64,000 bases of DNA from an uncultured Chloroflexia bacterium (GTDB taxonomy: Bacteria; Chloroflexota; Limnocylindria; Limnocylindrales; CSP1-4): assembly GCA_963837215.1 (NCBI GenBank), contig CAWIML010000009.1:222739-286738 (forward strand). Direction: 5' to 3'. This document shows positions 33,322 through 56,750 of this stretch, piece after piece. The position numbers and the translations under genes are program-made. Each line of letters starts with the position of its first letter. Positions within the stretch are counted from its first letter, which is position 1. The notes under the pieces are model-generated. The model saw only the letters and a list, made by a program, of their open reading frames with translations, did not search any database and was not told the origin of the DNA.

Positions 33322-34756
33322 ACGACCACCGCCTCGACACCGAGATGCTTGGCCACCGCGACGACGTCGCCCGAGAGGTCGCCGGGCGTCGCCGAACTAT
33401 GGTGATTGACCCCGGCGCTGGCCCAGCGACTCCAGGCCGTCTCGACCGAGCCTTCGGCGAACCGGAAGGCGCCGTTGATCGTGCCCGTCTCTGGGAAGGT
33501 CCGGGCGGTCAGCTCGCCCCGTGCGACGACGAAGCGGAACCCGCCATGCGCCGCGGGGTGCGGTGTGAAGCCCACCAGCGTGGCCGGTCCGGGGGGCGGT
33601 TCGAAGACGGCGCACACCCCGCAGTGGACATCCTTGCCGCAGAACCAGCCATTGGGCCGCAGCCGCGGTCGCGCTCCGGGGGCCAGCCAGGCGAGGTCGT
33701 GTTCTCCGGAGTTCGCGATGACGACCTCGCCGGTCGCATAGTCGATGGCCTCGATCTCGTGGTAGACGGCTGCTCCGCCGAGCCGCTTGGTCGTGAGCAT
33801 GGCGACCGCGGTGACCACGTCGCCGGTGCAGGTGAATGGTCGGCCGCCGGACGTCAGGCGGCCCAGCGCCCAACACGGCGCGATGCCGATCGGCTCACCG
33901 AAGCGGAACTGCGGGACGTGGCAGTTGAAGGCGCCCCCATCCAGGTCGTGGGCGGCGACCACGGCCTCCAGCGCCAGCGCCGCGCGCAGCGATCGGTCCA
34001 AGGAATCGGCGGATGGAACGCCCTCGAACGTCCAGTCGCGGCGGACATCCGCCTCGAGCGCCCGGACGTCCGCGTCGGCGACCGCGAGGTATCGCTCGAC
34101 GACCTCGTCCGCGTCGACGCCGACGAGCTCGATCCCGGTCGCCGCCTGCAGGGCTGCGTCATCGACATCCACGTGGGCATACCCTTCCACTGGCCTGCCG
34201 ATCCGACCGAGTCGACTTCGCGATATCCCGCGCGCGATGCCGGCCAGACGCACAGCCATCTGCACGCGGGCGACGGTGTTCGGGTCGGATCGCCGACCCA
34301 GGACGAGGTCGAACGGACGGTCCGCCCTCGACAACAGGTTGGTGATCATCGGGGCCCCGACGGTCGCGCCCTGGGTCGTGATCGATCCGTGGTCGAACCG
34401 TCCGTCCACGAGACCGACCTCGTGCAACGCCCAGACCACGACAGGGATGCCGGGGAGGAGCGTCGATCGCGGCCATCGTCCAGGCGGCGGGCACCGCCAT
34501 CGTCTGGAGGACGAGGACCACGTCGACCGCGGCGTCGGCGAACTCGCGCCCGATGTTGACTCCGTCCTCGGCCGAGGCGATCTCGACGACCGCGACCGTG
34601 TCGACCGCTCCGATCGCGGCGAGCTCGTCGGCGACGGATCGCGCAAGGGCCATCCTGTCCGCCCGGAAGGTCGGGCTCGGCGGTGTGCTCCCAGAGCGTC
34701 CAGTATGGGTGGACGATCCCGACCCGCGGTCGGTGGTCGGCGGTGTTTGCGGGCAT
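33318..34756 (-). pseudogene. L-fucose/L-arabinose-isomerase-family sugar isomerase, interrupted by two +1 frameshifts
   Basis: The N-terminus MPANTADHRPRVGIVHPYW (frame of ORF 34346..34864) continues as MALARSVADEL..VVLVLQTMAV (ORF 34159..34653). It then continues as LLPGIPVVVWALHEVG... to the end (ORF 33318..34646). Shifts are at about 34655-34700 and about 34455-34465. Confidence 0.65.
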
Positions 34757-34757: not shown

Positions 34758-35406
34758 TCAGTCCTGGTGGAAGACCTCGTCCGCGGTGATGAGGTTGCCG
34801 TCGGGATCGGTGATCGTGGTGATGATCCCCTCGAACGCAGCACCCCAGCGGGCATTGACCTCATACGTCGCCATCTTCCCGAAGACGCTGGTCAGATCCG
34901 GGTAGAACTCCCCGTAGTAGACGACGTGCCCGCCGCGCCGGAAACCGGTGTACTTGCGGAACCCGGACGTCTCGATGGCGGCCATCAAGTCAGGCCACGG
35001 GTTCGCATGGAGCGCCTCGTATTCGTCGGCGCGGTCGGGGTCGATGACCAGGCCGAACAGCGCCCGCTGGAACGGGCCATCCAGCGGCGGGCCATCCGCG
35101 TAGAAGACCTCGTCGTACCAGAGCAGTTCGCCGGCGTCGTCCGTGATCTGCGGCGATGACGTCCCGGAAGTAGTGGTTCCAGCGCTGGTTCGCCGGCTTG
35201 GGCCCGTGGACGCCGAAGGCTGTGGCCGCGTCCGGGTCGGCTTCGAGGAAGTACCAGACATCCGTTCCGCGTCGGAAGCCGGACATGTTGCGCAAGCCCG
35301 ACTCGCGGATCTCGGTCGTGAGCTCCGGCCAGATCTCCGCATGCCTGCGGTCGTACTCGGCCTCTGTCCCGGGGAAGATGCGGAGGTAGAAGCAGGCGCG
35401 TTCCAT
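34758..35406 (-). pseudogene. Tandem (two-domain) L-rhamnose-mutarotase-family protein, one +1 frameshift
   Basis: Domain 1 (MERACFYLRIFPGTEAEYDRRH..., ORF 34990..35406) joins at about 35150-35156 to ...ITDDAGELLWYDEVFYADG plus domain 2 (ALFGLVIDPDRADEYEALH...EVFHQD, ORF 34758..35441). Confidence 0.65.
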
Positions 35407-35426
35407 GAGCGGGCCCTCGAGCTGAC

Positions 35427-35440
35427 TGGCAACGGTTCCA
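35427..35440. promoter_or_regulatory. LacI-type operator-like near-palindrome TGGCAACGGTTCCA
   Basis: 21 nt upstream of the mutarotase/isomerase/P450 operon start (35406). One of the better matches to the recurrent motif. Confidence 0.55.
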
Positions 35441-35492
35441 ACCGAGATGCTACCGCCTCGCGGTGGCGCCCGTATCCGGTCGACGCTGGCTG

Positions 35493-36317
35493 CTAAGCGA
35501 AGAGGATGAGCGCCACGCCAACGGCCACGATCGTCGCAGCCACGACGGCGCGCGCCGCCGGCATCGTTCGGCGCCTGATCGACTCGAAGAGGAGGATCAT
35601 CAATGGCGTCGTCGCGACCATGGTCTGTACCACGACGGGGCTGCCGGTCTGAGCGCCGAGGATGACGAACACGAAGTAGGTGGTCACCACCACGGATCGA
35701 CCCAGCAGGCGCGGGATGTCGGCACGGGCGACATCGCGGGGCGGGAAGACGGCGATACAGATGATGGCCGCCAGTGACGTTCTCACGACGTACGTTTCCA
35801 CCACGCCTACACCCTGGTCACCGAGCAGGGTGCTCGCGACGGTCAGGAGGCCGGTACCGGTCGCCGCCCCGATGATGCGCCACGTGCGGCCCCAGTGACC
35901 CAGCCCGGCAAAGGCATCCGCCAGCGCGACGAGGACCCCGATCACGACCACGAACGCCGCCACCACCTGGATCGGATGGACGGCGCCAGGCAGGACGACC
36001 GCGGCGGCCAATGCGGTCGGGACCGGGCTCATGGCTGTCGCGGTCGTCGTCGCCGACGCCGACCCGTGATCGAACAGGTCCCAGACGCAGATGGCGGTCA
36101 CGACCATCAGGGCGACGGACACCAGGTGAAGTCCGACGATCGTGGGGCTCCAGACCCAAACCGCGAACGGCGCGAACGGCAGGAGAACGAGCGCATTGGC
36201 CAGGTACAGAACGCCGATCAGCTGGCGGGCGGGCGCGCGATAGGTGAGCTCCTTGCTGATCACGGCCTGACCGGCATTCGTCAGCGCGGCCAGGAACCCG
36301 AACACGACCGCGCTCAC
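35493..36317 (-). CDS. EamA/DMT-family membrane transporter-like protein
   Basis: About 274 aa from GTG 36317, about 9-10 hydrophobic segments, Ala/Val/Leu-rich. The upstream part of the track ORF (to 36881) is antisense to the next gene. Confidence 0.6.
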   Translation of the reverse strand: MSAVVFGFLAALTNAGQAVISKELTYRAPARQLIGVLYLANALVLLPFAPFAVWVWSPTIVGLHLVSVALMVVTAICVWDLFDHGSASATTTATAMSPVPTALAAAVVLPGAVHPIQVVAAFVVVIGVLVALADAFAGLGHWGRTWRIIGAATGTGLLTVASTLLGDQGVGVVETYVVRTSLAAIICIAVFPPRDVARADIPRLLGRSVVVTTYFVFVILGAQTGSPVVVQTMVATTPLMILLFESIRRRTMPAARAVVAATIVAVGVALILFA

Positions 36318-36350
36318 GAAACCCTCCGAGACATGCGAGCCGCTCGCGCG

Positions 36351-36399
36351 TGGTATCGTGCTCGCAACCAGTCTGCAAACGCTACCGGTATCGTCAAGC
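36351..36399. promoter_or_regulatory. Cluster of three operator-like sites (TGGTATCGTGCTCGCA, TCTGCAAACGCTACCGG, CGGTATCGTCAAGC)
   Basis: Fills much of the 111-nt divergent gap between the DMT gene and Cys-rich paralog 1. Confidence 0.5.
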
Positions 36400-36428
36400 A
36401 TGCTCGGTCGGGCGAGCGGGAGGCCAGG

Positions 36429-37545
36429 GTGAGCGAGACCGCCATCGCGTTCACGGATCTGCTGGGCAGGCGTGTCCGGATGGGTCCCTGGGAGGACCAG
36501 AAGGTTTCCACCTACCGAAAGATCATCGAAGCCCTCGAGGGCGGCCGGTGGGACGAGGCGGCGACTCTCGGTAGCTACTTCGTGGACGAAGCGAATGTCT
36601 GCTTCACGCTCTATCGGCAGTGGATCGGCGACCTGAACGGGTTCCTGCGCGACAAGGGTGTCGACGAGGACGTCATCCAGGCGCGCAACGACCAGGCGGT
36701 CGCGGTCGCGACCCTGCCGGACGGCACGCCGTGGCTTCCCCGGAAGCATTGGGACCGGTTCCTGTCCGAGGTCCAGGCCTTCACGGCCGCGACCTATCGC
36801 GAGCGGCCCGACGAGGCCCGCCGCCGGCTGGACACCATGAAGGAGACCTGGCGTCAGTGTCACGACCGCGACGTCGACCACACCTATGCGCTGATGTCGT
36901 TGATCAAGGAGCAGCTCGGCGAGGACGCCATCAGGGAGATGTTCGATCGCGTCCTGCTACCGCTGTTCGTGTGGCGTTATGAGAAGTTCGACATCGACAA
37001 GTACCCGTGGGACGAGTCCCTCGAGATCCTGATGCTCGTGGCCTGCGAGGCGATGCGCGGCCATCTCGTGGGGCCCGGAGCGGACCGGCGACATGGAGCT
37101 CGTCGAGCTCGAAGACCGCTTCGTCCTGCGCTTCGATCCGTGTGGCTCAGGCGGCCGGACGCTGCGCGGCGACTCGATCGAGGGCACGCCACCGCGGATG
37201 CAGCCCCCGTATGACTGGACCGTGACAGAGGAGCCCCACACCTGGAACCACAACACGCCAGGTGTCTGCCTCTACTGCACCCACTGCATCATCCTGATGG
37301 AGGAGATGCCCATCGATCGCTTCGGCTACCCCGTCCGGGTGGTCGACCCGCCGGTCTACGACGCAGCGCGAACCGCGGTCGGCGAAGCGCAGAAGTGCCA
37401 GTGGCAGATGTTCAAGGATCCGACCCAGGTCCCCGAGGAGTACTACACGCGAGTCGGGCGAACGAAGCCGACGACCTTCGGGTCCAAGGCGCATGGCGCC
37501 CGTCAGCTGCCGGTCATGAACGCCGGACTTCCTGGCGCCGGCTGA
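36429..37545 (+). pseudogene. Uncharacterised Cys-rich protein family, copy 1 (one +1 frameshift at about 37080-37083)
   Basis: GTG 36429 after GGGAGG. The frame of ORF 35895..37214 runs up to ...EAMRGHLVGPGA. ORF 37093..37545 then supplies ...MELVELEDRFVLRFDPCGSGGR...GVCLYCTHC...KCQW. It is collinear with 41151..42290 and 55659..56750. Confidence 0.7.
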
Positions 37546-37648: not shown

Positions 37649-38776
37649 TCAGTCGAAGCGGTAGCCGCGCACGACCGCCTCGTCGACGTCGACGCCCAGC
37701 CCGGGGCCGGCCGGCGGGATGACCCAGCCGTCGACCTGTTCGATCGGACGTCGGACGAGCTCGTGCTGCATCGGTGATGGCAGCGGCTTGAGTTCCATGA
37801 GCAGCACGTTGTCCGATGCGGCGGCCAGGTGGAGCGAGGCCGCGGTGTTGAGCGCGCTGCTCCACGAGTGGGCGTTCCACGCCCGCCCGGCCCGACTCGC
37901 TGCGCGGATGACGTTCCAGGTGCCGGTCACGCCCTCGGCCTTGCCCGGATCGACCATCACCACATCCACCCCGCCCGAGTCGATCAGTCGATCATAGTGA
38001 TCGATCGTCCAGCCCTTCTCACCGGTGCAGATGCGGGTGGTGGCTGCGGCATGAAGAGCCTGGTACCCGGCGATGTCGTTCTCCGGCAGCGGGTCCTCGA
38101 GCCAGAACAGACCGACCTCATCGTCGAGCCGATGGGCCATGTGGATGGCATGCTCTGGGGTCCAGCCCGCGAGGGCAACGACGTCGCAGATCATCTCGAT
38201 GTCGTCGCCGATCGCGCGCCGCACCGCGTGCGCGATCGCCATGTCGCGCGCCTCGTCGCGCCCGAAGGCCCTGGCGAGATCATGGCCCCAGCCACCTTTC
38301 ACGATGGTGTAGCCCTGATCCCGGAATGCGGAGAACTCCTCGGTGATGCGCTCCGTGTCGTCGCCGTGGAAGATCGCACTGGCACACGCGCGCAGCCGAT
38401 CGTGTCGCCGGCCGCCCAACATCTCCGACAGGGACCGGCCCTCGATGCGGCCCTTGAGGTCCCACAACGCCATGTCGAGGGCTGAGATCGCGAACGTCAC
38501 GATGCCGCCATTGCCATCCCAGTAGGTCGCGTCGCGCATGCGCGTCCACAGGTCGGTCACATCCAGGGCATCCTGCCCGATGAGGAGCGGTGCCAGGCGC
38601 CGCTCCGCGATCAACCGGACGGCAAGCGACGTCTCCTGCGTGCCGCTGACCGCTTCGCCCCAGCCCACCTGCCCGTCGTCGGCCTCCACCCGCGCCAGCG
38701 TCAGCGAGCGGATCTTGCCGTCGTTGTTCGGTTCCGGGTAGCGGACCGCGAAAGCCTCGACGCGGGCGATGCTCAC
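37649..38776 (-). CDS. Enolase-superfamily dehydratase-like protein (second subtype)
   Basis: VGWGEA, ALWDLKGR, WLEDP and GEKGW blocks. Paralog of 21209..22348. GTGA overlap with the upstream VOC gene. Confidence 0.85.
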   Translation of the reverse strand: MSIARVEAFAVRYPEPNNDGKIRSLTLARVEADDGQVGWGEAVSGTQETSLAVRLIAERRLAPLLIGQDALDVTDLWTRMRDATYWDGNGGIVTFAISALDMALWDLKGRIEGRSLSEMLGGRRHDRLRACASAIFHGDDTERITEEFSAFRDQGYTIVKGGWGHDLARAFGRDEARDMAIAHAVRRAIGDDIEMICDVVALAGWTPEHAIHMAHRLDDEVGLFWLEDPLPENDIAGYQALHAAATTRICTGEKGWTIDHYDRLIDSGGVDVVMVDPGKAEGVTGTWNVIRAASRAGRAWNAHSWSSALNTAASLHLAAASDNVLLMELKPLPSPMQHELVRRPIEQVDGWVIPPAGPGLGVDVDEAVVRGYRFD

Positions 38777-39252
38777 GCCGTCCAGTCCGGACCGCCGGGC
38801 GGCTCCTCGAGCAATTCGATCGAAATGCCGTCAGGGTCCCGGAGGTAGCAAGCGCGACCACCGCGGTATGGCCCCCATGGGATGTCCACCGGAGCGTCCG
38901 AGCGGAACGTGTCGAAGCCGGCAGCCTGCAGTCGGAGGTAGTCAGCCGACATGTCGTCCGTGACGAGGCAGAGGTGGGCATTCCCGGCGTTGTACGACTC
39001 CATGTCGACGACGCCGGCCGGCGGTGACTTGTACTCCAGCAGTTCGAGGATCACACCGTTCGGAAGCTGGAAGAAGGCGCCTTCGAGGACCAGGTCGGCG
39101 TAGCCGACGATCTCGCCCACGTACGGGACATCCCAGGTCTTGCGGGTGATCATCGGGACGCCGAGCAGCGCTTCGTAGAACGCGATCGAGCGATCCAGAT
39201 CGGCGACTGCGTACCCGACATGATCGAGCGCCCGAAACCGCGGACCAGTCAT
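38773..39252 (-). CDS. VOC (glyoxalase/dioxygenase) family protein
   Basis: LDHVGYAVADLDRSIAFY... and DPDGISIELLE. ATG 39252 preferred; the track start is 39288. Confidence 0.75.
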   Translation of the reverse strand: MTGPRFRALDHVGYAVADLDRSIAFYEALLGVPMITRKTWDVPYVGEIVGYADLVLEGAFFQLPNGVILELLEYKSPPAGVVDMESYNAGNAHLCLVTDDMSADYLRLQAAGFDTFRSDAPVDIPWGPYRGGRACYLRDPDGISIELLEEPPGGPDWTA

Positions 39253-39294
39253 CACTCCAACCGTAGTGGACGATGGTTGGTCGCGCAACAGCCG

Positions 39295-40035
39295 TCAGTG
39301 GAGGGCGAGGCCGCCGGTGATGTCGAACTCCGCCCCGGTCGCGTACGTGTTCTGGTCGCTCACGAGCCAGGCGACCATCCGGCCGATCTCGGCCGGATCT
39401 GCGATCCGGCGAAGCGGGATCATCTCCCGCTCCGCCTTGGCCACCAACTCCGGCGAGGTCTCGTTGAGGAGCATGCCCGTCCTCATCCCCCCGGGACAGA
39501 CGGTGTTGACCAGGACGCCGTGTTCGGCTCCATGGCGTGCGAGCATCTTGGTGAAGACGGCCACGGCGCCCTTGGATGCCTCGTAGATGGCCGAGGTCAT
39601 GGTGAAGCCGCCTTCATAGACCCCGGTCGAGGTCACGTTGACGATCCGCCCCCAGCCACGGGAGGCCATGTCCGGAATGGCCGCCCGGGCGAGGATGAAG
39701 GGGGCAAGGGCGTTGACGTGGAAGACGCGGTCGAAGTCCGCGGGGGTGACGTCGTCGAACGCGCGACGGTGCAGGATCGCCGCCGCGTTGACCAGGGCGT
39801 CGACGCGTCCGAACGCGGCGATCGTCCGAGGGACCACCGTTTCCGCCTCGTCCGCGAGGCCGAGGTCGACGACCTGCGTCATCGCGTCCGCCCCCAGTGC
39901 GCTGACCTCGGCACGCGTGCGTTCGACCGCATCGCCCTGGTTGTCGACGAGGCTTAGCCGGTAGTCGCCTGCCTCGGTCAGCAACCGCGCGACCGCCGAC
40001 CCGAGCCCTCCACCGGCTCCGGTGATGATGGCCAC
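39295..40035 (-). CDS. SDR-family oxidoreductase
   Basis: GTG 40035 with AAGGAG 6 nt upstream. TGAGGGLG and YEASK motifs. The rest of the 554-aa track ORF is antisense to 40074..41150. Confidence 0.8.
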   Translation of the reverse strand: MAIITGAGGGLGSAVARLLTEAGDYRLSLVDNQGDAVERTRAEVSALGADAMTQVVDLGLADEAETVVPRTIAAFGRVDALVNAAAILHRRAFDDVTPADFDRVFHVNALAPFILARAAIPDMASRGWGRIVNVTSTGVYEGGFTMTSAIYEASKGAVAVFTKMLARHGAEHGVLVNTVCPGGMRTGMLLNETSPELVAKAEREMIPLRRIADPAEIGRMVAWLVSDQNTYATGAEFDITGGLALH

Positions 40036-40073
40036 GCGCCGCTCCTTATTGCCGGCGGACGGTGAACCGCTCG

Positions 40074-41150
40074 TCACGATCTCGCTCCTTCCAGGCTCGT
40101 TGCCAACCCATCCTGCGCGGCGCTTCGGTACGCGGCGTGGAGGGTCTCGACGGTGAGCTGCCCGATCCAGGCCGGCGAACCATTGATGCCCGATCCGCTG
40201 GCGAGATCGATCAAGTTCCGCGCGGGGCTTGTCATCGGGTATCGATCTTGGGGTGGCAGGACTGGCTCCTCGATCGTGCCGTCCTGGCCGTAGAGCCGCA
40301 GCGACCCGTCCATGACTCCGAAATGCAGGTGCCCGACCGAACCGTGGATGATGTATTCGAGGGTATCGGTGTGCGTCACGGGCGCGACGGCGCCAGTACT
40401 GCCGACGACCCCGAGCGCCCCGCCTCGAAAACGGATGGCAAGGGCGTCCACGACATCGACCGCCGTCCCTTGGCGGTCCATGAACGCCGTCACCCGTTCT
40501 GGTTCCAGCCCGGTCAGGAAGATCAGCAGCGCGATGGAATGGGTGAGCTGCGTCTGGCCCTGGCCGCCGCCTGCCAGGTCGGGTTCCGAGTAGGTCGTCG
40601 CCAACGGCCCGTCGAACGCCTCGCCCGCGCCGTACGCATAGACGTCGAGCTCTGGCGCTCCACGGTACAGGTTGATCGGGCTCGAGCCGAAGAAGGACTG
40701 CACATAGTGGATGGATCCGATCCGCCCATCCTCGATCCAGGCGCGGGCTCGCAGGACCTGCTGGTTGTAGTGCCACGTGTAGCCGACCACGATCTCCACG
40801 CCGGCCGCGGCAGCTGCCGCGATCAGCGCTCGGCCGTCCGCCGGCTCGAGCACGAGCGGCTTCTCCACGAGGACGTGGACGCCGCGGCCGACGGCGTCGA
40901 GGGCGATCTCGTAGTGGTAGCGGTGCGGTGCCGCGACGATGAGGGCGTCGAGTTCGCACTCCGCCAGCATCGCCGCGGGGTCGTCGAAGCAGGCTTCGAC
41001 ACCGTAGCGACGCGCGGACCGCTCGAGGTTCGGGCGATCAGGGTCGGCCAGCGCGACGAGCTCGGCGTGCGGGTGGCTCGCGACGGCGGGAAGGTGCGCC
41101 GTCCTGGCCCAGTGGCCGACGCCGGCGACACCGATCCGCACGCGATGCAT
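40074..41150 (-). CDS. Gfo/Idh/MocA-family dehydrogenase
   Basis: VRIGVAGVGHW, EKPL and GGGQGQTQLTH. Its ATG directly abuts the stop codon of the Cys-rich gene (41151), with a 0-nt spacer. Confidence 0.85.
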   Translation of the reverse strand: MHRVRIGVAGVGHWARTAHLPAVASHPHAELVALADPDRPNLERSARRYGVEACFDDPAAMLAECELDALIVAAPHRYHYEIALDAVGRGVHVLVEKPLVLEPADGRALIAAAAAAGVEIVVGYTWHYNQQVLRARAWIEDGRIGSIHYVQSFFGSSPINLYRGAPELDVYAYGAGEAFDGPLATTYSEPDLAGGGQGQTQLTHSIALLIFLTGLEPERVTAFMDRQGTAVDVVDALAIRFRGGALGVVGSTGAVAPVTHTDTLEYIIHGSVGHLHFGVMDGSLRLYGQDGTIEEPVLPPQDRYPMTSPARNLIDLASGSGINGSPAWIGQLTVETLHAAYRSAAQDGLATSLEGARS

Positions 41151-42290
41151 CTAGGCCTGCTCCTCGCCCGGCTTGCCGACGTCCGTGGGCTTCGTGCGTC
41201 CGACATCGCGGTAGTAGCGCTCTGGCACGTCGGCCGGGTCCTTGTAGACATGCCACACGCACTTCGCCTCGCGCGTGTCGGGGTAGGTCGGCGGCTCCAC
41301 GACGCGAACCGGATACCCGAACGTATCGATCGGCATGAGCTGCATCACGACACAGCAGTTGACGCAGTAGTAGCACACGCCTTTCTTGTTCCAGGCGAAG
41401 TCGTAGGCTTCCTTCGTGACCCCGTAGCCGAACGGCGACTCCATCCTCGGCGGCGAGCCCTCGATGGCATCGCCGCGCATCGAGCGTCCGCCGCTGCCAC
41501 ACGGATCAAAACGCCACGTGAAGCGCTCGGCATCCTCGGTGAACTCCATGGTGCCGTCGCGCTCCGGCCCGACCAGGTGGCCCCGCATCGCCTCGAACGC
41601 GAGGTAGACATTCGTCCAGAGCGAGTCGGACCAAGGGTTCCGGGCAACGTCGAACTTTTCGTACCGGGCGGCGAACAGCGGCCCGATGATGGCATCCCAG
41701 AATTCGCCGACGACCGGTTCGCCCCAGCGCACCACCGCCTCGTTGAGCAGCCCATAGAGATGATCGACGTCACGGTCCTGGATCTGGCGCCAGGTCTCCT
41801 TGGACTGTGCCAGAAGCGTCGATGCGCCGGCGCCGTCCTGGGCTCCGCAGGCGAGGACGGTCGCCCGGATCTCGGCCTGGAACTCGGCCCATCGGGCACG
41901 CGCCACGAACGGCCGACCGTCGGGCAGGGGGATGAGCGCGAGGAGCCGCGTGTTCAGTTCCAGGAGTTCCGGTCGCGTGAACCCGCGCTGCTCCAGGAAC
42001 GAGATCGCATCCGGGATCAGGCCACGGAAGACACCGAAGATGACCGAGGCCTCATCGACGAAGAAGTCGACGTACGCTGCCGCGCGCGACCAGTCGCCAT
42101 CGTCGATCGCATCCAGCGCCTTCCTGAACGTCGAGACGGCGGCGTCCGACCACTCGGCGTCGGACCGGATGCGCCGGCCCAAGACCTCCGAGTAGCGCAG
42201 GACGTCCCCGTCGACCATCGGCGTGCCGACTGACGGCCCGGCCGCTTCCGTCAGCAACTCCTCGATCCAACCCCCGGCGTCACCGGCCAT
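41151..42290 (-). CDS. Uncharacterised Cys-rich protein family, copy 2 (intact)
   Basis: 379 aa, GGAGGG RBS. Conserved blocks EAMRGHLVGP, RFDPCGSGGR, GDAIEG, GVCYYCVNC, GYPVRVVEPP, KCVW and GRTKP are shared with the other two copies. I cannot place it in a named family. Confidence 0.8.
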   Translation of the reverse strand: MAGDAGGWIEELLTEAAGPSVGTPMVDGDVLRYSEVLGRRIRSDAEWSDAAVSTFRKALDAIDDGDWSRAAAYVDFFVDEASVIFGVFRGLIPDAISFLEQRGFTRPELLELNTRLLALIPLPDGRPFVARARWAEFQAEIRATVLACGAQDGAGASTLLAQSKETWRQIQDRDVDHLYGLLNEAVVRWGEPVVGEFWDAIIGPLFAARYEKFDVARNPWSDSLWTNVYLAFEAMRGHLVGPERDGTMEFTEDAERFTWRFDPCGSGGRSMRGDAIEGSPPRMESPFGYGVTKEAYDFAWNKKGVCYYCVNCCVVMQLMPIDTFGYPVRVVEPPTYPDTREAKCVWHVYKDPADVPERYYRDVGRTKPTDVGKPGEEQA

Positions 42291-42318: not shown

Positions 42319-43092
42319 TCAGCCCGACAGATTCCCGCCGTCGATGTTGATCGATTCGCCGCTGATCCAGCCGGCACTCTCGGAGATCAGGAACATGATC
42401 GTATCGGCCACGTCCGCCACCGTGCCCAGTCGGCGCAACGGGTAGGCGGCGGCACCGTCCTCGAGGACGCGCGCCGCGGGCTTGTCGAAGAGCCGCACCT
42501 TCTGCTCCAGCACCTTCTGGCCCATGCCGGTGTCCGCGACGGTCGATGGACAGACGGCGTTGACGGTGATGCCGAGTGGCCCCAGCTCGGCCGCCAGCGA
42601 CTCGGTCAGCCCGACGACTCCGAATTTCGAAGCGACGTAGGCAGAGATGAGTGCGTAGCCCTTCTTGCCAGCGTCCGACGCGACATTGACGATGCGCCCG
42701 CGGCCACTGTCCCGAAGGTGGGGGAGGGCAGCCTGACAGGTCAGGAACACGCCCTTGAGATTGACGTCCAGGATCCAGTCCCACTCACGCTCCGAGATCT
42801 CGCCGAGGGCCCGGAACTCGAACACGCCTGCGCTATTGACGAGGGTGTCCAGGCCCCCCAGGGCCTCCGCGGCTGCGGCGGTCCCCACCTCGACGGATGT
42901 CCGATCCGCAACGTCGATGACGATCGCTGTGGCACCCGGCAAGCGTGCGGCCGCTCGCTCGACCGCGGCCGCATCGATGTCAGCGATCGCGACCGTCGCC
43001 CCGGCCTGCGTCAGCCGTTCGGCAACGCCGAAACCAAAGCCGGATGCGCCGCCCGTGATGAGCGCTCTGCGGCCCTCCGCGATCTCGAACAT
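42319..43092 (-). CDS. SDR-family oxidoreductase (FabG-like)
   Basis: TGGASGFG and YVASK motifs. First gene of the long minus-strand operon 43092..37649. Confidence 0.85.
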   Translation of the reverse strand: MFEIAEGRRALITGGASGFGFGVAERLTQAGATVAIADIDAAAVERAAARLPGATAIVIDVADRTSVEVGTAAAAEALGGLDTLVNSAGVFEFRALGEISEREWDWILDVNLKGVFLTCQAALPHLRDSGRGRIVNVASDAGKKGYALISAYVASKFGVVGLTESLAAELGPLGITVNAVCPSTVADTGMGQKVLEQKVRLFDKPAARVLEDGAAAYPLRRLGTVADVADTIMFLISESAGWISGESINIDGGNLSG

Positions 43093-43218: not shown

Positions 43219-44265
43219 ATGACTCCCCGCGCGTCCCTCGCCCGCCTGGCGGCCCTCACCGTCGTGGCGGCCCTCGCGGTCGGGGCATGCAGCCCGGCCG
43301 CGAGCCCCAGCGTCTCGGCGGACGCCTCCGCACCTGCCGCGTCGGTCACACCCGAGGCTTCGTCGGCCGCATCGCAGGAGCCCGTCAGGATCGGCTACAT
43401 CTCAGGCGGTGACAGCGATCCCTTCGTCCTTCTGGTCACGCAAGGCATTCGAGAGGAGGCCGCCAAAGCCGGCGTCGAGTTGTCGGAGTGCGACAGCAAC
43501 TTCGATGCCGCGACGGCCCTCGCCTGCGCCCGGACGCTTTCGTCGCAACAGCTGTCGTCGATGATCAACTGGCAGTTCTACCCCGATTCGGCGGAGGAGA
43601 TCTGCAACGCCTACGGCGACCTTCCGACCGTCGCGATCGACACGCCGGAGGAACCCTGCCAGCAAGTGTTCGTCGGAGCGAACAACCGGGAGGCCGGGCT
43701 GATCGCCGGCAAGGGGTTGGCTGACTTTGCGTCCTCCAAGTTCGGATGCGCATACGACGCCTACATCTCCCTGGACTTCCCGGTCATCGCGGAGGTCAAT
43801 GCGGCTCGGGCGGGCGGCAGCAAGGAAGGCTTCGAGAACGTGTGCGGGCCGATCCCGGCCGACAAGTACTTCTCCGTCGACACCTTCGCGGGCGGTCCCG
43901 ATCAGAATGAGAACTCGCGCCGCCAGGTGACAGACATCCTGACCACGCTGCCCGACGCCAAGACCATCCTGGTCATCTCGCCGAACTCGGACGGGGCCGC
44001 CCTCGCGGCCCTCGCGGCAGCCGACGTCGCTGGTCGCAAGGATCAGATGTGGGTCGTTTCGCACGGCGGCGACCCGAGCGTGCGCGACTCGATCCGCAAC
44101 GAGCCGCAATGGGTCGGATCGGTCGCCTACTTCCCCGAGTCGTACGGGAAATTGGTGATCCCGCTGGCCGTGTCGCTTGCCAAGGGAGAGTCGGTGCCGG
44201 AGCAATCGCTCGTCACGCACCTCTTCATCAACAAGGCCAACATCGACCAGTACTACCCGGAGTAG
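43219..44265 (+). CDS. Sugar ABC transporter substrate-binding lipoprotein
   Basis: ATG 43219 after AGGAGG. Lipobox AVGAC. About 40% similar in layout to 59380..60492 (shared ...C.S..D...ALAC...Q..S...NW... and VAYFPE.YGK..IP blocks). Confidence 0.8.
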   Translation: MTPRASLARLAALTVVAALAVGACSPAASPSVSADASAPAASVTPEASSAASQEPVRIGYISGGDSDPFVLLVTQGIREEAAKAGVELSECDSNFDAATALACARTLSSQQLSSMINWQFYPDSAEEICNAYGDLPTVAIDTPEEPCQQVFVGANNREAGLIAGKGLADFASSKFGCAYDAYISLDFPVIAEVNAARAGGSKEGFENVCGPIPADKYFSVDTFAGGPDQNENSRRQVTDILTTLPDAKTILVISPNSDGAALAALAAADVAGRKDQMWVVSHGGDPSVRDSIRNEPQWVGSVAYFPESYGKLVIPLAVSLAKGESVPEQSLVTHLFINKANIDQYYPE

Positions 44266-44319
44266 CGAGTCGGCTGCGAGTGACCGCCGGGTGGCGAACC
44301 GCACGCTCGAGGTCATTCG

Positions 44320-45360
44320 ATGAACGCAACAGGGAATGCCCCCATCGAGGGTGAGCCCGGCAGTCGCTCGCCCTCGATCGGGCGGAAGGGCTCGGCCATC
44401 CGGAATGTGGTCCTGACACCGACGACCGCCCGGATCGCGGCGCTCATCGCAGTCTGCGTCTTCTTCTCGATCGCGAGCCGCTTCTTCCTGACGTCGAGCA
44501 ACCTGCTGAACGTGATGCAGAACACGGTCGTGGTCGGCATCATCGCCGCGCCGTTGACCCTGCTGCTGGTCGCGCGGCAGGTCGACCTTTCGGTCGGGTC
44601 CGCGGTCGCGCTGGCAGCCACGACCCTGGCTGTGGTCAACGAGGCCGGCTACGGGCTCGGCCCGGCGATCCTGGCGGCCATGGCAGCCGCGATGCTGGTT
44701 GCCATCGTCAACGCGTTCGTGATCACGAAGCTTCGGGTCAATTCGATCATCGCGACGCTGGGGACGCTTGTCGCCTTCCGGGGTCTCGCAAAGCTGGAGG
44801 GCTCAGGTCGGAATATCCGGGTCGAGGACTTCGAGCTTCTCGGGAGCACCAGGTTGGACATCCTGGGTCTCGCCGTGCCGCTCGCCGTCCTCATCCTGCT
44901 CGCGGTGCTGGCCTTCTTCTCGGTCCTCATGAGCGAGACGCGGTACGGCAGGCACATGTACGGGATGGGAGCGAACCCGAAGGCGGCTCTGCTCGCGGGG
45001 ATCAGACTCGAACGTGGTGTCGTCGTCGGGTTCCTCTTGACGGGCCTCGTCGTAGGCATCGCCTCGCTGATCGCGGTTTCCGAGATCGGTGCCGTGGCGC
45101 CGACCACGGGCCAGGGTCTCGAACTGCTGGCGATCACGGGCATCATCCTCGGGGGTGCCAGCCTGAGTGGCGGTCGCGGGACGATCCTCGGCACGATCAT
45201 CGCGATCCTCATCCTCGCCGTGCTCGACAACGGCCTGACCCTCTCGCGGGTCACCTCCTTCTGGCAGGAGGTCGTGCGAGGGACGATCCTCATCGCGGCT
45301 GTCGCGCTCGATCAGGCGCGCATCGCCCGCGGGAAGCCAGACGTGCGGTTCGAGCTGTGA
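44320..45360 (+). CDS. Sugar ABC transporter permease
   Basis: Hydrophobic multi-span protein with GGASLSGGRGT. Confidence 0.85.
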   Translation: MNATGNAPIEGEPGSRSPSIGRKGSAIRNVVLTPTTARIAALIAVCVFFSIASRFFLTSSNLLNVMQNTVVVGIIAAPLTLLLVARQVDLSVGSAVALAATTLAVVNEAGYGLGPAILAAMAAAMLVAIVNAFVITKLRVNSIIATLGTLVAFRGLAKLEGSGRNIRVEDFELLGSTRLDILGLAVPLAVLILLAVLAFFSVLMSETRYGRHMYGMGANPKAALLAGIRLERGVVVGFLLTGLVVGIASLIAVSEIGAVAPTTGQGLELLAITGIILGGASLSGGRGTILGTIIAILILAVLDNGLTLSRVTSFWQEVVRGTILIAAVALDQARIARGKPDVRFEL

Positions 45361-46134
45361 TCGACCACCCTCTCCTCTCGGTCGAACACGTCAGCAAGAG
45401 TTACGGCCATGTCGAGGCGCTCAGAGACGTCAGCTTCGACCTGCGTCGGGGCGAGGTCGTCGGGCTGGTCGGCGATAACGGCGCCGGGAAATCGACGCTC
45501 ATCAAATGTATCGCCGGCGTCCTGCGTCCCGATAGCGGCGACATCCACGTGGAGGGCACGAGACATGAGTTCGCCGCACCGGCGGAGGCACGTGCCGCCG
45601 GCATCGAGACGGTCTACCAGGACCTTGCCCTCGTGGAGATGTTCGACCTGACCGCGAACCTGTTCCTGGGTCGGGAGCTGGTGCGGTCCGGCTGGATGGG
45701 GCGGCTCGGTTTCCTGCGCAAGGGCGACATGGAGAGGCAGGCGCGCGCCGCGATCAGCCAGCTTCCGGCCCGATTTCCGGACATGGACGCGCCCATCGAC
45801 ACCATGTCCGGCGGCCAGCGCCAGATCGTGGCCATCAGCAAAGCGGCGTTCTGGGGCCGGCGCCTGTTGCTGCTCGATGAGCCGACGGCGGCCCTCGGAG
45901 TGCAGGAATTCGGCGGCTGTCCTCGAGATGGTGAACCACGCTGCCGCAGGCGGGGACATGGCGATCCTCGTGATCGCCCACAACCTCGAGCATATCTTCT
46001 CGATCTGCACGCGGGTGCTGGTCATGCGCCGGGGATCACTGGTCGCCGACCTGCCGGTCGAGGGGGCGTCGGCTGAAAACGTGGTCGCCTACATCACTGG
46101 CGCGAAGTCGCAGAGCCCTGGCGCAGCGATCTAG
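45357..46134 (+). pseudogene. ABC transporter ATP-binding protein (single domain), one +1 frameshift at about 45909-45910
   Basis: GDNGAGKST, MSGGQRQ and LLLLDEPTAALGVQE run in the frame of ORF 45357..46076. The sequence then continues as SAAVLEMVNH...ILVIAHNLEH in ORF 45877..46134. The extra base lies in the TT of GAATTC. Confidence 0.75.
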
Positions 46135-47057
46135 GCCAGGAAGGCTCGCGGGTTGTCCACCAGCAGTCGCTGGATGCCCGACTCAGGCAGTCCGCGCTCC
46201 CGGAGCCTGGGCACGAAGTCGACCAGCACGTGGGCGTATCCACCACCACCGTTGCGCGCCAGTGCGGGGCGCTTGCAGACATCGGAGGAGAGGAGGATCC
46301 GGTCCAGGTGCCCGCGGGCGACGAGGCTCATGACGCGGTCCGCCCGCTGATCATCGGTCGTCTTGTCGAGCTGTCCGATGGTGTCGAATCCGAGCCACGC
46401 CCCGCGCTCCAGGACGGCAAGGTGGTAGGCGTCGTCGGGGCATGTATCGGCGTGTCCGATCAGGATCTTGCCTGGATCGGCGCCGGCAGCTTCCAGGATC
46501 CCGAGCTGGTCCAGCCCGATCGTCGTGAACAGGGCGTGGGTCGCGATCGGCGCGCCGGTCTGCCGCTGTGCGGCGGCGGCCGCGCGCAGGACGCGGGCCT
46601 CCGTCGCGTCGATCTCGCGATGCCCGGTCGCGATCTCGCCGATGATCCCCGCCCGGATCCGATCCGGACCCACGCCATCCTCCAACTCGGTCACGAATCG
46701 CCTGGTAAGGGCGTCCTCGGTCATCGATTCGACCCAGGCCGGGCGAAACCGTCGCCAGTAGACGCCGGTGCCGGCGACGATCCTGACTCCCGTCGCCAGC
46801 GAGATCCGGCGAAGGCCGTCCCAGTCAGGGTGGAGGCCGACAGTCGTCTGGTCCACGACCGTGACCCCACCAGCCGTTCGGAACAGCGTGAGTTCCTCTG
46901 TCGCCTCCGACTCGTCCAGCAGGACGGTCGCCGAGTTCAACGACACCTCGTACATGTCGATCAGCAGGTGCTCGTGGACGAGCGTCAAGCCCAAGTCCGC
47001 GGCGGAGATCGGGCCGGTCACCGTCTCGACGGATCCCATGCGAAGTCGATCGCTCAT
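46131..47057 (-). CDS. Phosphotriesterase-family (PTE/PLL-like) hydrolase, probable lactonase
   Basis: GLTLVHEHLLID N-terminal metal motif, GEIATG and IGHAD blocks. ATG 47057 lies 1 nt after the upstream stop. Confidence 0.8.
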   Translation of the reverse strand: MSDRLRMGSVETVTGPISAADLGLTLVHEHLLIDMYEVSLNSATVLLDESEATEELTLFRTAGGVTVVDQTTVGLHPDWDGLRRISLATGVRIVAGTGVYWRRFRPAWVESMTEDALTRRFVTELEDGVGPDRIRAGIIGEIATGHREIDATEARVLRAAAAAQRQTGAPIATHALFTTIGLDQLGILEAAGADPGKILIGHADTCPDDAYHLAVLERGAWLGFDTIGQLDKTTDDQRADRVMSLVARGHLDRILLSSDVCKRPALARNGGGGYAHVLVDFVPRLRERGLPESGIQRLLVDNPRAFLA

Positions 47058-47058
47058 C

Positions 47059-47940
47059 TCAGGCATCTTCAGGCGTCGGCAGATGGGCCCGCAACCAGGC
47101 CACGCTGCGCTCGACCATCGCCAGCTCGTCGACATCATCCGGTCCGAGGGATGCCAGCTCCACGCAGACCGGGCCGTCGAACCCCGCTCGGGCGAGGATG
47201 TCGATGAGTCCATCGAGGTCAGCGACGCCCTCGCCGAGCGCCGTGCATACCGGACCGCCTGGTACCGTCGGGTCGCCCGCGAGGTGGTCCTTGAGCTGGA
47301 CGAGCAGGGTGTACGGCGCGAGCGCCCGCGTGCCCTCCGCCATGTCGTCGCCGACCCGCGGCAGATTCACGTTGTCGAGGCAGACGCCCATGGTGTCGGG
47401 GCGGTCCACTCGCTCGAACAACTCGAGGATGTCACGCGCGCGCAGGTCGCCGTGGTTCTCCAGCGCGAGCCTGACCCCGTGCTCAGCAGCGATATCCGCA
47501 GCTCGCCGTGTGGGACCGACCAGACGCTCCACGAGGACCTCGGCCGGCTCGTCGCCTCTCGACGTCGGACTGCCCGCGGTGATCCGAAGCACGCCGTGGC
47601 CCAGACGAGCGGCCGCGTCGATCCAACGAGCCAGCTCCTGCTCGGCGCCGTACGAGCGGCCGCCGTCGAGGCCATGGAATCGGCCGGACGGCCACGGATG
47701 GCCCCAGGAGAAGCCGGCGCGGACGCTCTGGCCAGCGGCCGCGAGCATCGCCTCGTCGATCAGCTCGGGTTCAGGGAGGTAGCAGGTCTCGAGGAAGACG
47801 ACGTCAGCCCCGGCCGCTCGTGCGTGGCGCAGGACCGGTCCGGGCTCGGGGGCCCACGGCTCGTGCACCGAGGCGGCCTCTCCAGGCCGATGCTCGCCGT
47901 ACCGCCGATGGTAGGAATAGCTGTCGATCCCGACCTGCAT
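47059..47940 (-). CDS. Sugar phosphate isomerase/epimerase (xylose-isomerase-like TIM barrel)
   Basis: 293 aa. MQVGIDSYSY..., LALENH and VQLKD blocks. GAGGAG RBS. Confidence 0.75.
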   Translation of the reverse strand: MQVGIDSYSYHRRYGEHRPGEAASVHEPWAPEPGPVLRHARAAGADVVFLETCYLPEPELIDEAMLAAAGQSVRAGFSWGHPWPSGRFHGLDGGRSYGAEQELARWIDAAARLGHGVLRITAGSPTSRGDEPAEVLVERLVGPTRRAADIAAEHGVRLALENHGDLRARDILELFERVDRPDTMGVCLDNVNLPRVGDDMAEGTRALAPYTLLVQLKDHLAGDPTVPGGPVCTALGEGVADLDGLIDILARAGFDGPVCVELASLGPDDVDELAMVERSVAWLRAHLPTPEDA

Positions 47941-47971
47941 CTCGACTCCTCACCGGCTCGCCGTGATGGCC

Positions 47972-48003
47972 TATGCTACTTGCCTCGCTGGAAACGTCAC
48001 CAG
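47972..48003. promoter_or_regulatory. Possible -10 (TATGCT) plus operator-like GCTGGAAACGTCACCAG
   Basis: In the divergent gap 47941..48044. The same TATG[CA]TACTTGC..GCTGGAAACG arrangement recurs at 61036..61062. Confidence 0.5.
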
Positions 48004-48044
48004 CCAAGGCATGCAACCGGCTCGGCCGACGGAGGAGAACGCCG

Positions 48045-48755
48045 ATGATCCAGGTCGAAGGATTGAACGGCCGCGTCGCTGTCGTGACCGGGGCAGGCCG
48101 CGGCATCGGCCAGCGGATCGCCGAGGTGCTGGCGGGCAACGGCGCCAAGGTCGCAGCACTGGACCTCGCGGCACCGGCCCACGAGGGCATCCTGGGCATC
48201 GCCTGCGATGTCAGCGACGAGGTGGCGGTCGAGGCGGCGTTCGACCGTGTCGAGGCTGAACTCGGCCAGGTCTCCGTGCTGGTGCTCAACGCCGGCATCT
48301 TCCCCATCGTCCCGTTCGAGGAAACGACGCGCGAGCTGTGGGATCGGACCATGGCCATCAACCTCACCGGCGCCTTCCTGTGTGCGCGCCGAGCTCTGCC
48401 GACGATGCGCGAGGCGGGCTACGGCAGGATCGTGGGCATCGGCTCGAGCGCCGGAAAGGCCGGCGGCGCGCGGTCGGTCGCCGCGTATGCCGCCAGTAAG
48501 GCAGGGGTCATGACGCTCATGAAGTCCATCGCCAACGAGTACGCGAAATTCGGCATCACCGCCAATGCCCTGGCTCCGGCCCTCATCGATACACCGATGA
48601 TCGACAACACGCGCGATCTCGTGAGCCGCATCCCCGTCGGACGGTTCGGGACCGTGGACGAGGTCGCCTCGCTCGTCGCCTTCCTCGCCTCCGGGCACGC
48701 CGGCTACATCACCGGCGAGGTGACCGACATCAACGGTGGCTTCCTGATCGATTGA
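48045..48755 (+). CDS. SDR-family oxidoreductase (FabG-like)
   Basis: ATG 48045 after GGAGGAG. TGAGRGIG and YAASK motifs. Confidence 0.85.
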   Translation: MIQVEGLNGRVAVVTGAGRGIGQRIAEVLAGNGAKVAALDLAAPAHEGILGIACDVSDEVAVEAAFDRVEAELGQVSVLVLNAGIFPIVPFEETTRELWDRTMAINLTGAFLCARRALPTMREAGYGRIVGIGSSAGKAGGARSVAAYAASKAGVMTLMKSIANEYAKFGITANALAPALIDTPMIDNTRDLVSRIPVGRFGTVDEVASLVAFLASGHAGYITGEVTDINGGFLID

Positions 48756-48802
48756 CAGAGGAGTGCCAGTGGCCGAGCCGGAGCGGGACATCGGTCGATC
48801 CG

Positions 48803-53984: not shown

Positions 53985-54697
53985 GTCATGATCCAGCCGC
54001 CATTGACATCGATCGTCGCGCCGTTGATATAGCTTGCCGCATCGGAGGCCAGGAAGCCGACGACCTGGGCGATCTCGATGGGGGCGGCGAAGCGGCCCAG
54101 CGGTACGAGCGCGATGAAGTGCTCGCGCTCCTCCGCGGTGAGATGGTCGGTCATGAAACCTTCCACCGCTCCCGGCGCGACGGCGTTGGCCGTGATGCCA
54201 TGAGGGCCGTAGTTGCGGGCGAAGTTCTTCATCAGGCTGATGACGCCCGCCTTGGCGGCGTTGTAGACGGCGGAGTTGGAGACGCCACCAGTGCGGGCCC
54301 CGACGCTGGAGATGCCGATGATCCGGCCCCAGCGATTGGGACGCATCGCCTCCGCAGCCGCCTGCGAGAGGAAGAAGACAGCGCGCAGGTTCACCGAGGT
54401 CTGCAGGTCGTAGTCGTCGAGCGTGACGTCCCGAAGCGGATGGTCGTGGACGTAGACCGCGGCGTTGTGGACGAGGACGTCAAGGCGTCCTTCCGTGGCC
54501 ATGACGTCCGCCACGATCTGGCCCGGTACAGCTGGATCCAGCAGGTCGGCGGCGACTGTTCGTGCCAGACTCCCACGCGTCTGGTCCAGTCGGTCCAGGC
54601 CTACGACCCGGTGTCCCGACTCCGCCAACACGTCGCACATCGCGCGGCCCATCCCGCGCGCGCTACCGGTGACGAGCGCGACCCGGGACTCGGTCAT
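53981..54697 (-). CDS. SDR-family oxidoreductase
   Basis: TGSARGMG and YNAAK motifs. Confidence 0.85.
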   Translation of the reverse strand: MTESRVALVTGSARGMGRAMCDVLAESGHRVVGLDRLDQTRGSLARTVAADLLDPAVPGQIVADVMATEGRLDVLVHNAAVYVHDHPLRDVTLDDYDLQTSVNLRAVFFLSQAAAEAMRPNRWGRIIGISSVGARTGGVSNSAVYNAAKAGVISLMKNFARNYGPHGITANAVAPGAVEGFMTDHLTAEEREHFIALVPLGRFAAPIEIAQVVGFLASDAASYINGATIDVNGGWIMT

Positions 54698-55658: not shown

Positions 55659-56750
55659 TCAGTCTGGCTGGATGACTGGCAATGCCGGCTTGGATCGGCC
55701 GATTCGCTCGTACTCACGCTCGGGGATGGCCTCGAGCGTCTTCCACACGGTCCACTTGCACTGCTTGCGAGTCAGCGGGTCATCCTCCCCGCGCCACAGC
55801 GGCGGGTCCACGGTGCGGATCGGGTGGCCCCAACGCTCGGCCGGCAACGTCGAGAGCGTCAGGTTGCAGTGCGCGCAGTAGTAGCAGACACCGACCTCAT
55901 TCCAGGCCCACGGATGTCGCTCCTGAGTGACCCCGAAGTCATATGGGGCGAGGACTCGGGATCCCGTGCCCTCGATCTCGTCGCCGCGGACCTGGCGCCC
56001 ACCGGAGCCGCACGGATCGAAGCGCAGCTCCCAGCGATCATCGAACTCCACGAGGTCGATGTCGCCACGTCGGCCGGGCCCGACCAGATGCGCCCGCATC
56101 GCCTCGAGGGAGATGTACAGGTTTCGGACGAGGGTCTCGGCATACGGCCGAAGCCGCGTGTCGAAGACCATGTAACGCTCCTGGATGTACGGCTCCAGGA
56201 CCGATCGGTAGCACGGTTCCAGGGCCGCCTCGCCGAACCGCCTGGCCACGAAGGCCAGGACCCCGGCCATGAGGTCGGCGTAGCGATCGTGCAGGCGTCG
56301 CCAATCTGCGACCAGCGTCTCGAGGGCGCTTTCTCCGTCAGCGACCGATAGTTCGTAGCTGCGGATGCCGTTGCCCAGGGCGCCGGCAGACTCGCCCAGG
56401 GCTGCCCAGCGCACGGCCGGGTCGAGCGGGGTGCCATCCGGCCAAGCCATCAGCGTGCGAAGCCGCGACAGCTCGGCCTCGAGGTCGTCCTCGCTGACGC
56501 CCTGCTCGCGCAGCCAGGCGAGGAAGCCTGCCGTCCAAACGTCGTAGATGACGTAGACGACCTTGGCTTCCTCCATGAAGTAGTCGACCAACTGCGCCGC
56601 GGTCTCGCGACGGCCTGCGCCTGGCCCGAACGTGTCTCCGGCCTCGCGCAATGCCTCCTGGATCTTCGTGACCGTCGATATGGCCTGATCCGCCCAGTCG
56701 CCGGTGCGGACGCGCTTGCCGATCTCCTCGGACCACGTCAGGTGAGTCAT
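55659..56750 (-). CDS. Uncharacterised Cys-rich protein family, copy 3 (intact)
   Basis: 363 aa. EAMRAHLVGP, RFDPCGSGGR, GDEIEG, GVCYYCAHC, GHPIRTVDPP, QCKW and GRSKP. Lies between the ABC permease (21-nt gap) and the lactonase (12-nt gap). Confidence 0.8.
   Translation of the reverse strand: MTHLTWSEEIGKRVRTGDWADQAISTVTKIQEALREAGDTFGPGAGRRETAAQLVDYFMEEAKVVYVIYDVWTAGFLAWLREQGVSEDDLEAELSRLRTLMAWPDGTPLDPAVRWAALGESAGALGNGIRSYELSVADGESALETLVADWRRLHDRYADLMAGVLAFVARRFGEAALEPCYRSVLEPYIQERYMVFDTRLRPYAETLVRNLYISLEAMRAHLVGPGRRGDIDLVEFDDRWELRFDPCGSGGRQVRGDEIEGTGSRVLAPYDFGVTQERHPWAWNEVGVCYYCAHCNLTLSTLPAERWGHPIRTVDPPLWRGEDDPLTRKQCKWTVWKTLEAIPEREYERIGRSKPALPVIQPD

Follow-up and report, generated by a model that had tools for sequence, protein, structure and literature searches.

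How can a protein family have remained unnamed within sugar-oxidation pathways, a region of bacterial metabolism that has been mapped better than most? The question is raised by a 64,000-nucleotide stretch of an uncultured Chloroflexia bacterium (contig CAWIML010000009.1; here called the window, G+C content 68%), in which a minus-strand gene at 41151-42290 and two paralogs, at 36429-37545 and 55659-56750, encode cysteine-bearing proteins of an unclassified family. The family, here labeled F, sits mid-operon in such pathways, with up to three copies per island. F is a real and widespread family of soluble cytoplasmic proteins. Our preferred but tentative reading is that it is a metalloenzyme of a new fold, in which three Cys hold Fe-S or Zn where two domains meet, and that it acts as a lyase, hydro-lyase, or isomerase on oxidized sugar intermediates. 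What is new is the protein family and, as modeled, its fold, not the chemistry.

A first, sequence-only reading of the window had described three paralogs, and all three are present where it placed them; their strands (plus for copy 1, minus for copies 2 and 3) are added here. Copy 2 is 100% identical to a public protein (P0001). Pairwise BLASTP identities are 47% between copies 1 and 2 (E 1e-114), 39% between copies 1 and 3 (E 1e-88), and 36% between copies 2 and 3 (E 2e-76), with the C-terminal halves 49-57% identical versus 33-41% for the N-terminal halves. The copies are old paralogs and not a recent triplication, and tblastn found no fourth copy in the window. Five of the six motifs quoted in the first reading occur literally; the last should read Y-[YE]-x-[DR]-[VI]-G-R-[TS]-K-P, the earlier version being one residue short for copies 1 and 2.

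Copy 1 is split over two frames (36429-37076 and 37072-37542) by one extra base near 37072-37077, in GTGGGGCCCGGAG, a G/C run where the intact ortholog in locus L073 reads ...GGACCC-GAG.... Once this base is removed, the gene reads through. Because orthologs at 87-92% identity are intact, the break is either a homopolymer sequencing error or the mark of a very recent pseudogene. Two public homologs (P0158 and P0221) are likewise frameshifted gene calls, garbled like copy 1, and the fusions of F with Gfo/Idh/MocA oxidoreductases that they seemed to represent were rejected as products of error-prone assemblies. Frameshifts in copy 1 and several public homologs suggest that homopolymer errors from long-read sequencing occur often in these metagenome-assembled genomes (MAGs).

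The claim that F matches no known family has held against sequence and structure databases. None of the window copies has a significant match in Pfam-A or NCBIfam, 26 diverse F cores gave stray matches only (E 0.004 or weaker, each in 1 of the 26 members), and precomputed Pfam domains were absent from more than 350 homologs. Single matches, among them FCD at E 0.0025, ATC_hydrolase at E 0.11, and DUF2199, were dismissed as noise, as none recurred across members, and a literature search on ATC_hydrolase returned nothing relevant. Among PDB sequences, phmmer and profile searches with hmmsearch returned designed helical repeats alone. The radical-SAM pattern CxxxCxxC is absent, as the first reading had noted, and the fold predicted for F is a helical bundle with a small alpha/beta domain and not the TIM barrel of radical-SAM proteins. 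The CxxCxxC motif of F is followed by C, N, A, or I and not by the CP of ferredoxin-type 4Fe-4S sites, with no Fer4 match; PF03692, a putative Zn/Fe-chelating domain with CxxCxxCC and eight conserved Cys, gave no profile match, and the CxxCxxCC arrangement is limited to the copy-2 clade.

Structure prediction led to the same result. AlphaFold2, run on a 29-sequence alignment, modeled the whole protein with a predicted local distance difference test score (pLDDT) of 89.5 and a predicted template modeling score of 0.86. In the predicted build, a short N-terminal beta-hairpin precedes a bundle of six long helices (residues 66-236), and the cysteines lie in a small alpha/beta domain (residues 248-360). 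Foldseek searches of the PDB with the whole model returned unrelated helical proteins at best (E 0.8), although distant fold relatives may escape this method. The C-terminal domain had been singled out for such a comparison; modeled alone (pLDDT 81), as the helices could mask it, it found no match either (best E 3.2). Literature searches found no description of the family, and it is highly probable that F is a genuine, uncharacterized family.

Word-indexed searches with copy 2 returned 590 relatives, those with copy 3 returned 819, and a profile built from a divergent subfamily returned 112. All are named "hypothetical protein" in their sources, and in none does a precomputed Pfam domain cover F itself. 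When 1.84 billion cluster representatives were searched exhaustively with a hidden Markov model (HMM), 861 of the clusters (at 50% identity) scored E ≤ 1e-3, 537 of them E ≤ 1e-10. With each species represented by a single genome, F was found in 260 species, and the best 79 loci of these hits formed the sample for genomic context. About 31 fetched loci are labeled as Chloroflexota (Limnocylindria, 'Chloroflexia', and Anaerolineae) and about 41 to Actinomycetota (Acidimicrobiia, including sponge Spongiisociaceae; Thermoleophilia/Gaiellales/Solirubrobacterales; and a Rhodoglobus MAG), with a few from Acidobacteriota, Eisenbacteria, and one Burkholderiales MAG. F is also present in a Capillimicrobium MAG. 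The carriers are nearly all MAGs, which would explain the lack of a curated model, and F has been overlooked because they are nearly all uncultured Chloroflexota (Limnocylindria and relatives), Acidimicrobiia, and Thermoleophilia. In 14 of 72 loci F is present twice within 21 kb. Some members are shorter, at about 250 aa, and others contain a tandem pair of F cores.

The spacing C-x41-C-x2-C-x2-C-x31/35/36-C, from which an invariant five-Cys pattern had been proposed, is exact in all three window copies, and the five Cys are invariant among close relatives. Across 494 distinct full-length members aligned to the family HMM (copy-2 numbering), the best-kept positions are H238 and C264 (99%), C309 and C312 (98%), R236 (97%), E233 and D172 (96%), and K350 (95%), followed by C344 (89%), C306 and D176 (75%), H311 (74%), and H171 (70%); C313 is present in 42%. 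In 25% of members a His or Pro takes the place of C306. One true subfamily, in which C344 is Thr and C306 is either Pro or His, retains just C264, C309, and C312. The five-Cys invariance, like the tie to Gfo/Idh/MocA proteins discussed below, was thus over-generalized from three paralogs. The family-wide signature is instead three Cys, C...CxxC, together with conserved Asp, Glu, His, Arg, and Lys. In a few subfamilies C306, C309, or C312 is lost and C267 and C313 are gained; ligand migration of this kind points to one site that binds a metal or a cluster. Some of the conserved polar residues belong to the helical domain ([H]D-x3-D, GE, and E-x2-R-x-H) and others to the Cys domain; C264 is predicted to follow a strand and C309 and C312 to occupy the first turns of a helix, and the conserved residues of the helical domain would lie near the Cys site. 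F probably binds a metal or a cluster. The earlier suggestion of an Fe-S or Zn site is reasonable on this pattern, although sequence alone cannot tell the two apart.

The same cysteines might serve electron transfer. F could be an Fe-S carrier for cytochrome P450, for E1-type thiamine diphosphate (ThDP)-dependent enzymes that lack E2/E3, or for dehydrogenases with tightly bound nicotinamide, but we consider this quite improbable. Most members do carry four to six Cys including CxxCxxC, a P450 gene adjoins F in three loci (L037, L051, and L060) and lies in a divergent operon of the window, and several divergent subfamilies have E1 alpha/beta genes after F; yet P450 occurs in just seven loci and E1 in a minority. 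Moreover, F, at 330-380 aa and with a helical domain that is both large and conserved, is far above carrier size, there is neither a ferredoxin family match nor a flavin- or nicotinamide-binding signature that would couple hydride and one-electron chemistry, and one subfamily manages with three Cys.

Genomic context favors a place in sugar catabolism. Open reading frames (ORFs) called in the 79 loci were clustered by all-against-all BLASTP, cluster representatives were annotated, and neighbors were tallied over 72 loci. Within four genes of F are found short-chain dehydrogenases/reductases (SDRs; 47 loci), a 476-aa protein distantly like L-arabinose/sulfoquinovose isomerases (37), EamA transporters (25), zinc-dependent alcohol dehydrogenases (Zn-ADHs; 23), Amidohydro_2 proteins (20), sugar ATP-binding cassette (ABC) components (14-17), MR_MLE proteins (14), xylose-isomerase-like TIM barrels (14), tandem rhamnose mutarotases (13), phosphotriesterase-family (PTE) lactonases (12), Gfo/Idh/MocA oxidoreductases (11), and 2,4-diaminopentanoate-dehydrogenase-like proteins (9). 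Rarer partners are P450, a corrinoid methyltransferase set (URO-D-like, B12-binding, and RACo proteins), HpcH aldolase, and LacI. Homologs elsewhere thus again lie among dehydrogenase and sugar-transport genes, as had been anticipated from the window.

The arrangement of these genes differs between orthogroups. In the copy-2 type the order SDR-F-Gfo/Idh/MocA is kept (L001 to L004), and the abutting stop and start codons first noticed in the window (GCC TAG ATG, 0 nt) recur in L001 to L005. This junction is thus conserved in the copy-2 type, but with 11 of 72 loci, against 47 for SDRs and 37 for the isomerase-like protein, Gfo/Idh/MocA is not the general partner of F. Similarly, the view that every copy shares an operon with SDR and Gfo/Idh/MocA genes applies to copies 2 and 3, but copy 1 is monocistronic. 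Copy-3-type genes follow ABC transporter genes or adjoin another F, and in Acidimicrobiia copy-1-type genes come first in F-ZnADH-PTE-SDR operons with gaps of 0-4 nt. In divergent subfamilies F overlaps an SDR gene by 16 nt beside an arabinose-isomerase-like gene, an aminotransferase gene by 4 nt ahead of E1 alpha/beta, several SDRs, acetoacetate decarboxylase, and glyoxalase, or an Amidohydro_2 gene by 4 nt; the order LacI-F-SDR-E1 also occurs.

Such conserved 0-nt or overlapping junctions with Gfo/Idh/MocA, Zn-ADH, and SDR genes suggest matched product amounts, and they would suit a noncatalytic accessory or scaffold subunit that assembles with, or stabilizes, the adjoining dehydrogenase around a structural Zn(Cys) site, a common kind of site. 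We give this explanation little credence: the partner family shifts from locus to locus (Gfo/Idh/MocA, SDR, Zn-ADH, aminotransferase, or Amidohydro_2), many copies are monocistronic, and the invariant Asp, Glu, His, Arg, and Lys resemble an active site.

A third alternative arises from the commonest F context. The copy-1-type orthogroup (59 of 86 genes) is mostly monocistronic and divergent from an EamA-mutarotase-isomerase operon, a position familiar from regulators, and there is about one F per operon. F might thus be a sensor whose helical domain binds a metabolite or metal and whose Cys site senses redox state or holds a structural Zn; it would control the adjacent catabolic operon through a new DNA-binding surface or through a LacI-type repressor, and F and LacI genes do abut in several loci (gaps of 0-7 nt). 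The divergent N-terminal and conserved C-terminal halves would accord with this role, as would the scarcity of classical regulators nearby and a weak FCD match. However, Pfam and NCBIfam revealed no helix-turn-helix, winged-helix, or other DNA-binding profile in F, and the FCD match falls below the Pfam threshold in a nonconserved N-terminal stretch. The whole protein is acidic (pI about 5) and its conserved C-terminal domain is close to neutral (mean net charge -0.3), so that charge lends no support to DNA binding. In addition, F stands mid-operon between enzymes, with 0-nt or overlapping junctions, and the polar residues of its helical domain are invariant across subfamilies of differing context, which is unexpected for ligand-specific sensors. 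A regulatory role is improbable on this evidence, if somewhat less so than a role as carrier or scaffold.

We return, then, to the new-fold metalloenzyme. It is favored because of the three-Cys layout, the invariant polar set, the operon junctions, and a dehydratase or cleavage step that often has no assigned enzyme. The last point follows from two Pfam searches of 229 otherwise unannotated neighbors, in which no ILVD_EDD, DHDPS, or FAH appeared among the 25 most frequent of 70 and 77 families (single occurrences beyond these may be hidden), MR_MLE in 14 of 72 loci apart. An enzymatic role is further supported by the mid-operon position of F and its abutting or overlapping junctions with oxidoreductases and hydrolases (F/Gfo/Idh/MocA 0 nt; F/Zn-ADH 0-4 nt), by neighbors that are sugar-oxidation enzymes and transporters, and by old paralogs with distinct contexts. 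In the proposed mechanism, C264, C309, and C312 would hold a site-differentiated [4Fe-4S] cluster or a Zn ion, while H238, E233, R236, D172, and K350 would supply acid/base groups and bind carboxylate or carbonyl groups. The substrates would be keto-sugar or sugar-acid intermediates from the adjoining SDR, Gfo/Idh/MocA, or Zn-ADH, and each F paralog would serve one transporter-defined substrate.

Several observations weigh against this reading. First, partners vary so widely between loci that F cannot be credited with any one missing reaction, and the copy-2 operon already has an MR_MLE dehydratase. Second, the commonest orthogroup occupies the regulator-like position described above and classical regulators are scarce near F: LacI occurs in 13 loci, and no GntR, IclR, or TetR-type regulator was found among the same 25 most frequent of 70 and 77 families. 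Third, about 10% of the genes in these islands encode SDRs, which makes an SDR neighbor weak evidence. Fourth, most members have five or six Cys, which could fully ligate a cluster and so indicate an electron-transfer or structural role. Finally, remote relatives of the fold could have escaped Foldseek. On balance, the evidence leans toward F being an enzyme; a lyase, hydro-lyase, or isomerase acting on oxidized sugars is a possible but by no means secure assignment, and the earlier idea of a recurring, undescribed enzymatic step in sugar catabolism is plausible. It is rather doubtful whether F is the founder of a new enzyme superfamily with an unseen fold, catalyzing dehydration, elimination, or isomerization in the nonphosphorylative catabolism of deoxy- or O-methyl-sugars by abundant but uncultured soil and sponge Chloroflexota and Actinomycetota.

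The genes around the three copies are listed in Table 1. Copy 1 stands alone; it diverges from the EamA-mutarotase-isomerase-P450 operon and converges with MR_MLE, the last gene of the copy-2 operon. Nearly the full repertoire of F-associated neighbor families is present in the window. Two long minus-strand ORFs (43402-44316 and 45312-46025) lie opposite the ABC binding-protein and ATPase genes of the copy-2 locus, have no family match, and were rejected as shadow ORFs.

Table 1. Copies of F and surrounding genes in the window
Feature	Position	Strand	Details
F copy 1	36429..37545	+	371 aa once repaired; GTG start at 36429 provisional
F copy 2, gene of the finding	41151..42290	-	379 aa + stop; intact ORF; third-position G+C (GC3) 0.87
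F copy 3	55659..56750	-	363 aa + stop
SDR, upstream of copy 2	42319..43092	-	28-nt gap; adh_short 2e-54
Gfo/Idh/MocA oxidoreductase, downstream of copy 2	40074..41150	-	PF01408 7e-26
Second SDR, copy-2 operon	39295-40071	-	
Glyoxalase/VOC, copy-2 operon	38773-39288	-	
Enolase-superfamily MR_MLE, copy-2 operon	37649-38776	-	last gene
Sugar ABC transporter, copy-2 locus	43369..46076	+	divergent; tblastn of neighbor-cluster representatives; BPD_transp_2
ABC binding protein, copy-2 locus	about 43369-44265	+	
ABC permease, copy-2 locus	44320-45360	+	
ABC ATPase, copy-2 locus	45357-46076	+	
Binding protein, copy-3 operon	59380-60669	-	upstream part
Double ABC ATPase, copy-3 operon	57852-59342	-	upstream part
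Permease, copy-3 operon	56772-57845	-	upstream part
Amidohydro_2, lactonase-like, copy-3 operon	54753-55646	-	12 nt past copy 3; top PDB match 4dlf/4dnm
SDR, copy-3 operon	53981-54697	-	downstream
Gfo/Idh/MocA, copy-3 operon	52881-53984	-	downstream
EamA-type transporter	about 35493-36404	-	operon divergent from copy 1
Tandem rhamnose-mutarotase-domain protein	34758-35441	-	EamA operon
L-arabinose/sulfoquinovose-isomerase-like protein	33318-34646	-	EamA operon
Cytochrome P450	32029-33396	-	end of EamA-mutarotase-isomerase operon

Relatives of the isomerase-like protein (about 450-476 aa; a further example is L029:6049-7479) number 50 genes in 43 of the 79 loci. The protein has no Pfam match and scores in NCBIfam against SftI (6e-22, far under the cutoff) and L-arabinose isomerase, its relatives carry Arabinose_Iso_C, and it is presumably an aldose-ketose isomerase. 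The mutarotase-type protein beside it consists of two tandem rhaM domains, a form found in 14 loci, and is encoded between the EamA and isomerase-like genes. The window also encodes a URO-D-like methyltransferase with a B12-binding corrinoid protein (18081-19820, minus strand). P450 and corrinoid methyltransferases are demethylase-type systems, and because both recur near F in other phyla, they hint that O-methylated sugars may be substrates of the window island. F itself was rejected as a corrinoid activase, since the corrinoid loci hold their own RACo-type activase. A sulfonate (Hps-like) reading of Acidimicrobiales loci likewise found no support, the histidinol-dehydrogenase-like neighbor scoring as ordinary HisD.

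Other parts of the window contain two phosphotriesterase-family (lactonase-like) paralogs flanking a xylose-isomerase-like TIM-barrel gene and an SDR (46131-49846), followed by a metallo-beta-lactamase fused to an NPCBM-associated domain (49923-51725); in Limnocylindria loci this set is also found after F. The segments 11132-14348 and 61041-62102 hold E1 alpha/beta genes of a ThDP-dependent 2-oxoacid- or acetoin-type dehydrogenase next to a LacI regulator, and a separate E2 acyltransferase at 61356-62102; E1 pairs lacking E2/E3 stand directly 3' of F in several divergent subfamilies (L082, L089, and L091). The islands hold several other unclassified proteins: neighbor clusters c65 (about 550 aa, a tandem pair at L012:13117-16440, no NCBIfam match), c38 (328 aa, L065:5503-6489, no Pfam match), and c37 (398 aa, L065:16710-17906) are without a family match or unannotated, and the window segment 51722-52882 is 83% identical to c37.

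The groups that carry F are major soil and sponge lineages. Should F prove to be an enzyme, knowledge of its reaction would fill a gap in models of carbon turnover by these lineages, and F may add a new metal-dependent catalyst for the conversion of sugar acids or keto-sugars. If it is a sensor, F would be a new kind of regulator.

F can be compared with four known systems. The FCD domains of GntR regulators are all-helical and bind sugar acids with the help of a metal, and copy 2 matches one of them (PF07729, E 0.0025, 18.6 bits), but this match lies under the 24.3-bit threshold, is confined to copy 2 and to its nonconserved N-terminal stretch, and is not accompanied by a winged-helix domain. 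Rubrerythrin-like proteins share with F a helical domain with carboxylates and His followed by a small Cys domain. Unlike them, F has no ExxH pairs and no ferritin-like or rubredoxin match (Pfam and Foldseek), and its context is catabolic and not one of oxidative stress. The MR_MLE sugar-acid dehydratases have an unrelated fold but occur in the same operons, at the same presumed stage of the pathway; the two occur together in 14 of 72 loci, one of them the copy-2 operon, which argues against F being a simple MR_MLE substitute. The Fe-S hydro-lyases (aconitase/AcnX, IlvD/EDD, and L-serine dehydratase, with [4Fe-4S] or [2Fe-2S] clusters) are a functional class and not a homologous family, and F differs from them in having no sequence or fold similarity and, in most members, extra Cys. 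Aconitase and the IlvD/EDD enzymes use three-Cys clusters, C...CxxC is the ligand pattern of site-differentiated Fe-S hydro-lyases, and F shows three conserved Cys as a sequence pattern, together with putative acid/base and cationic residues like theirs. The IlvD/EDD enzymes act in nonphosphorylative sugar oxidation, and it is this same genomic setting that F shares with the Fe-S hydro-lyases.

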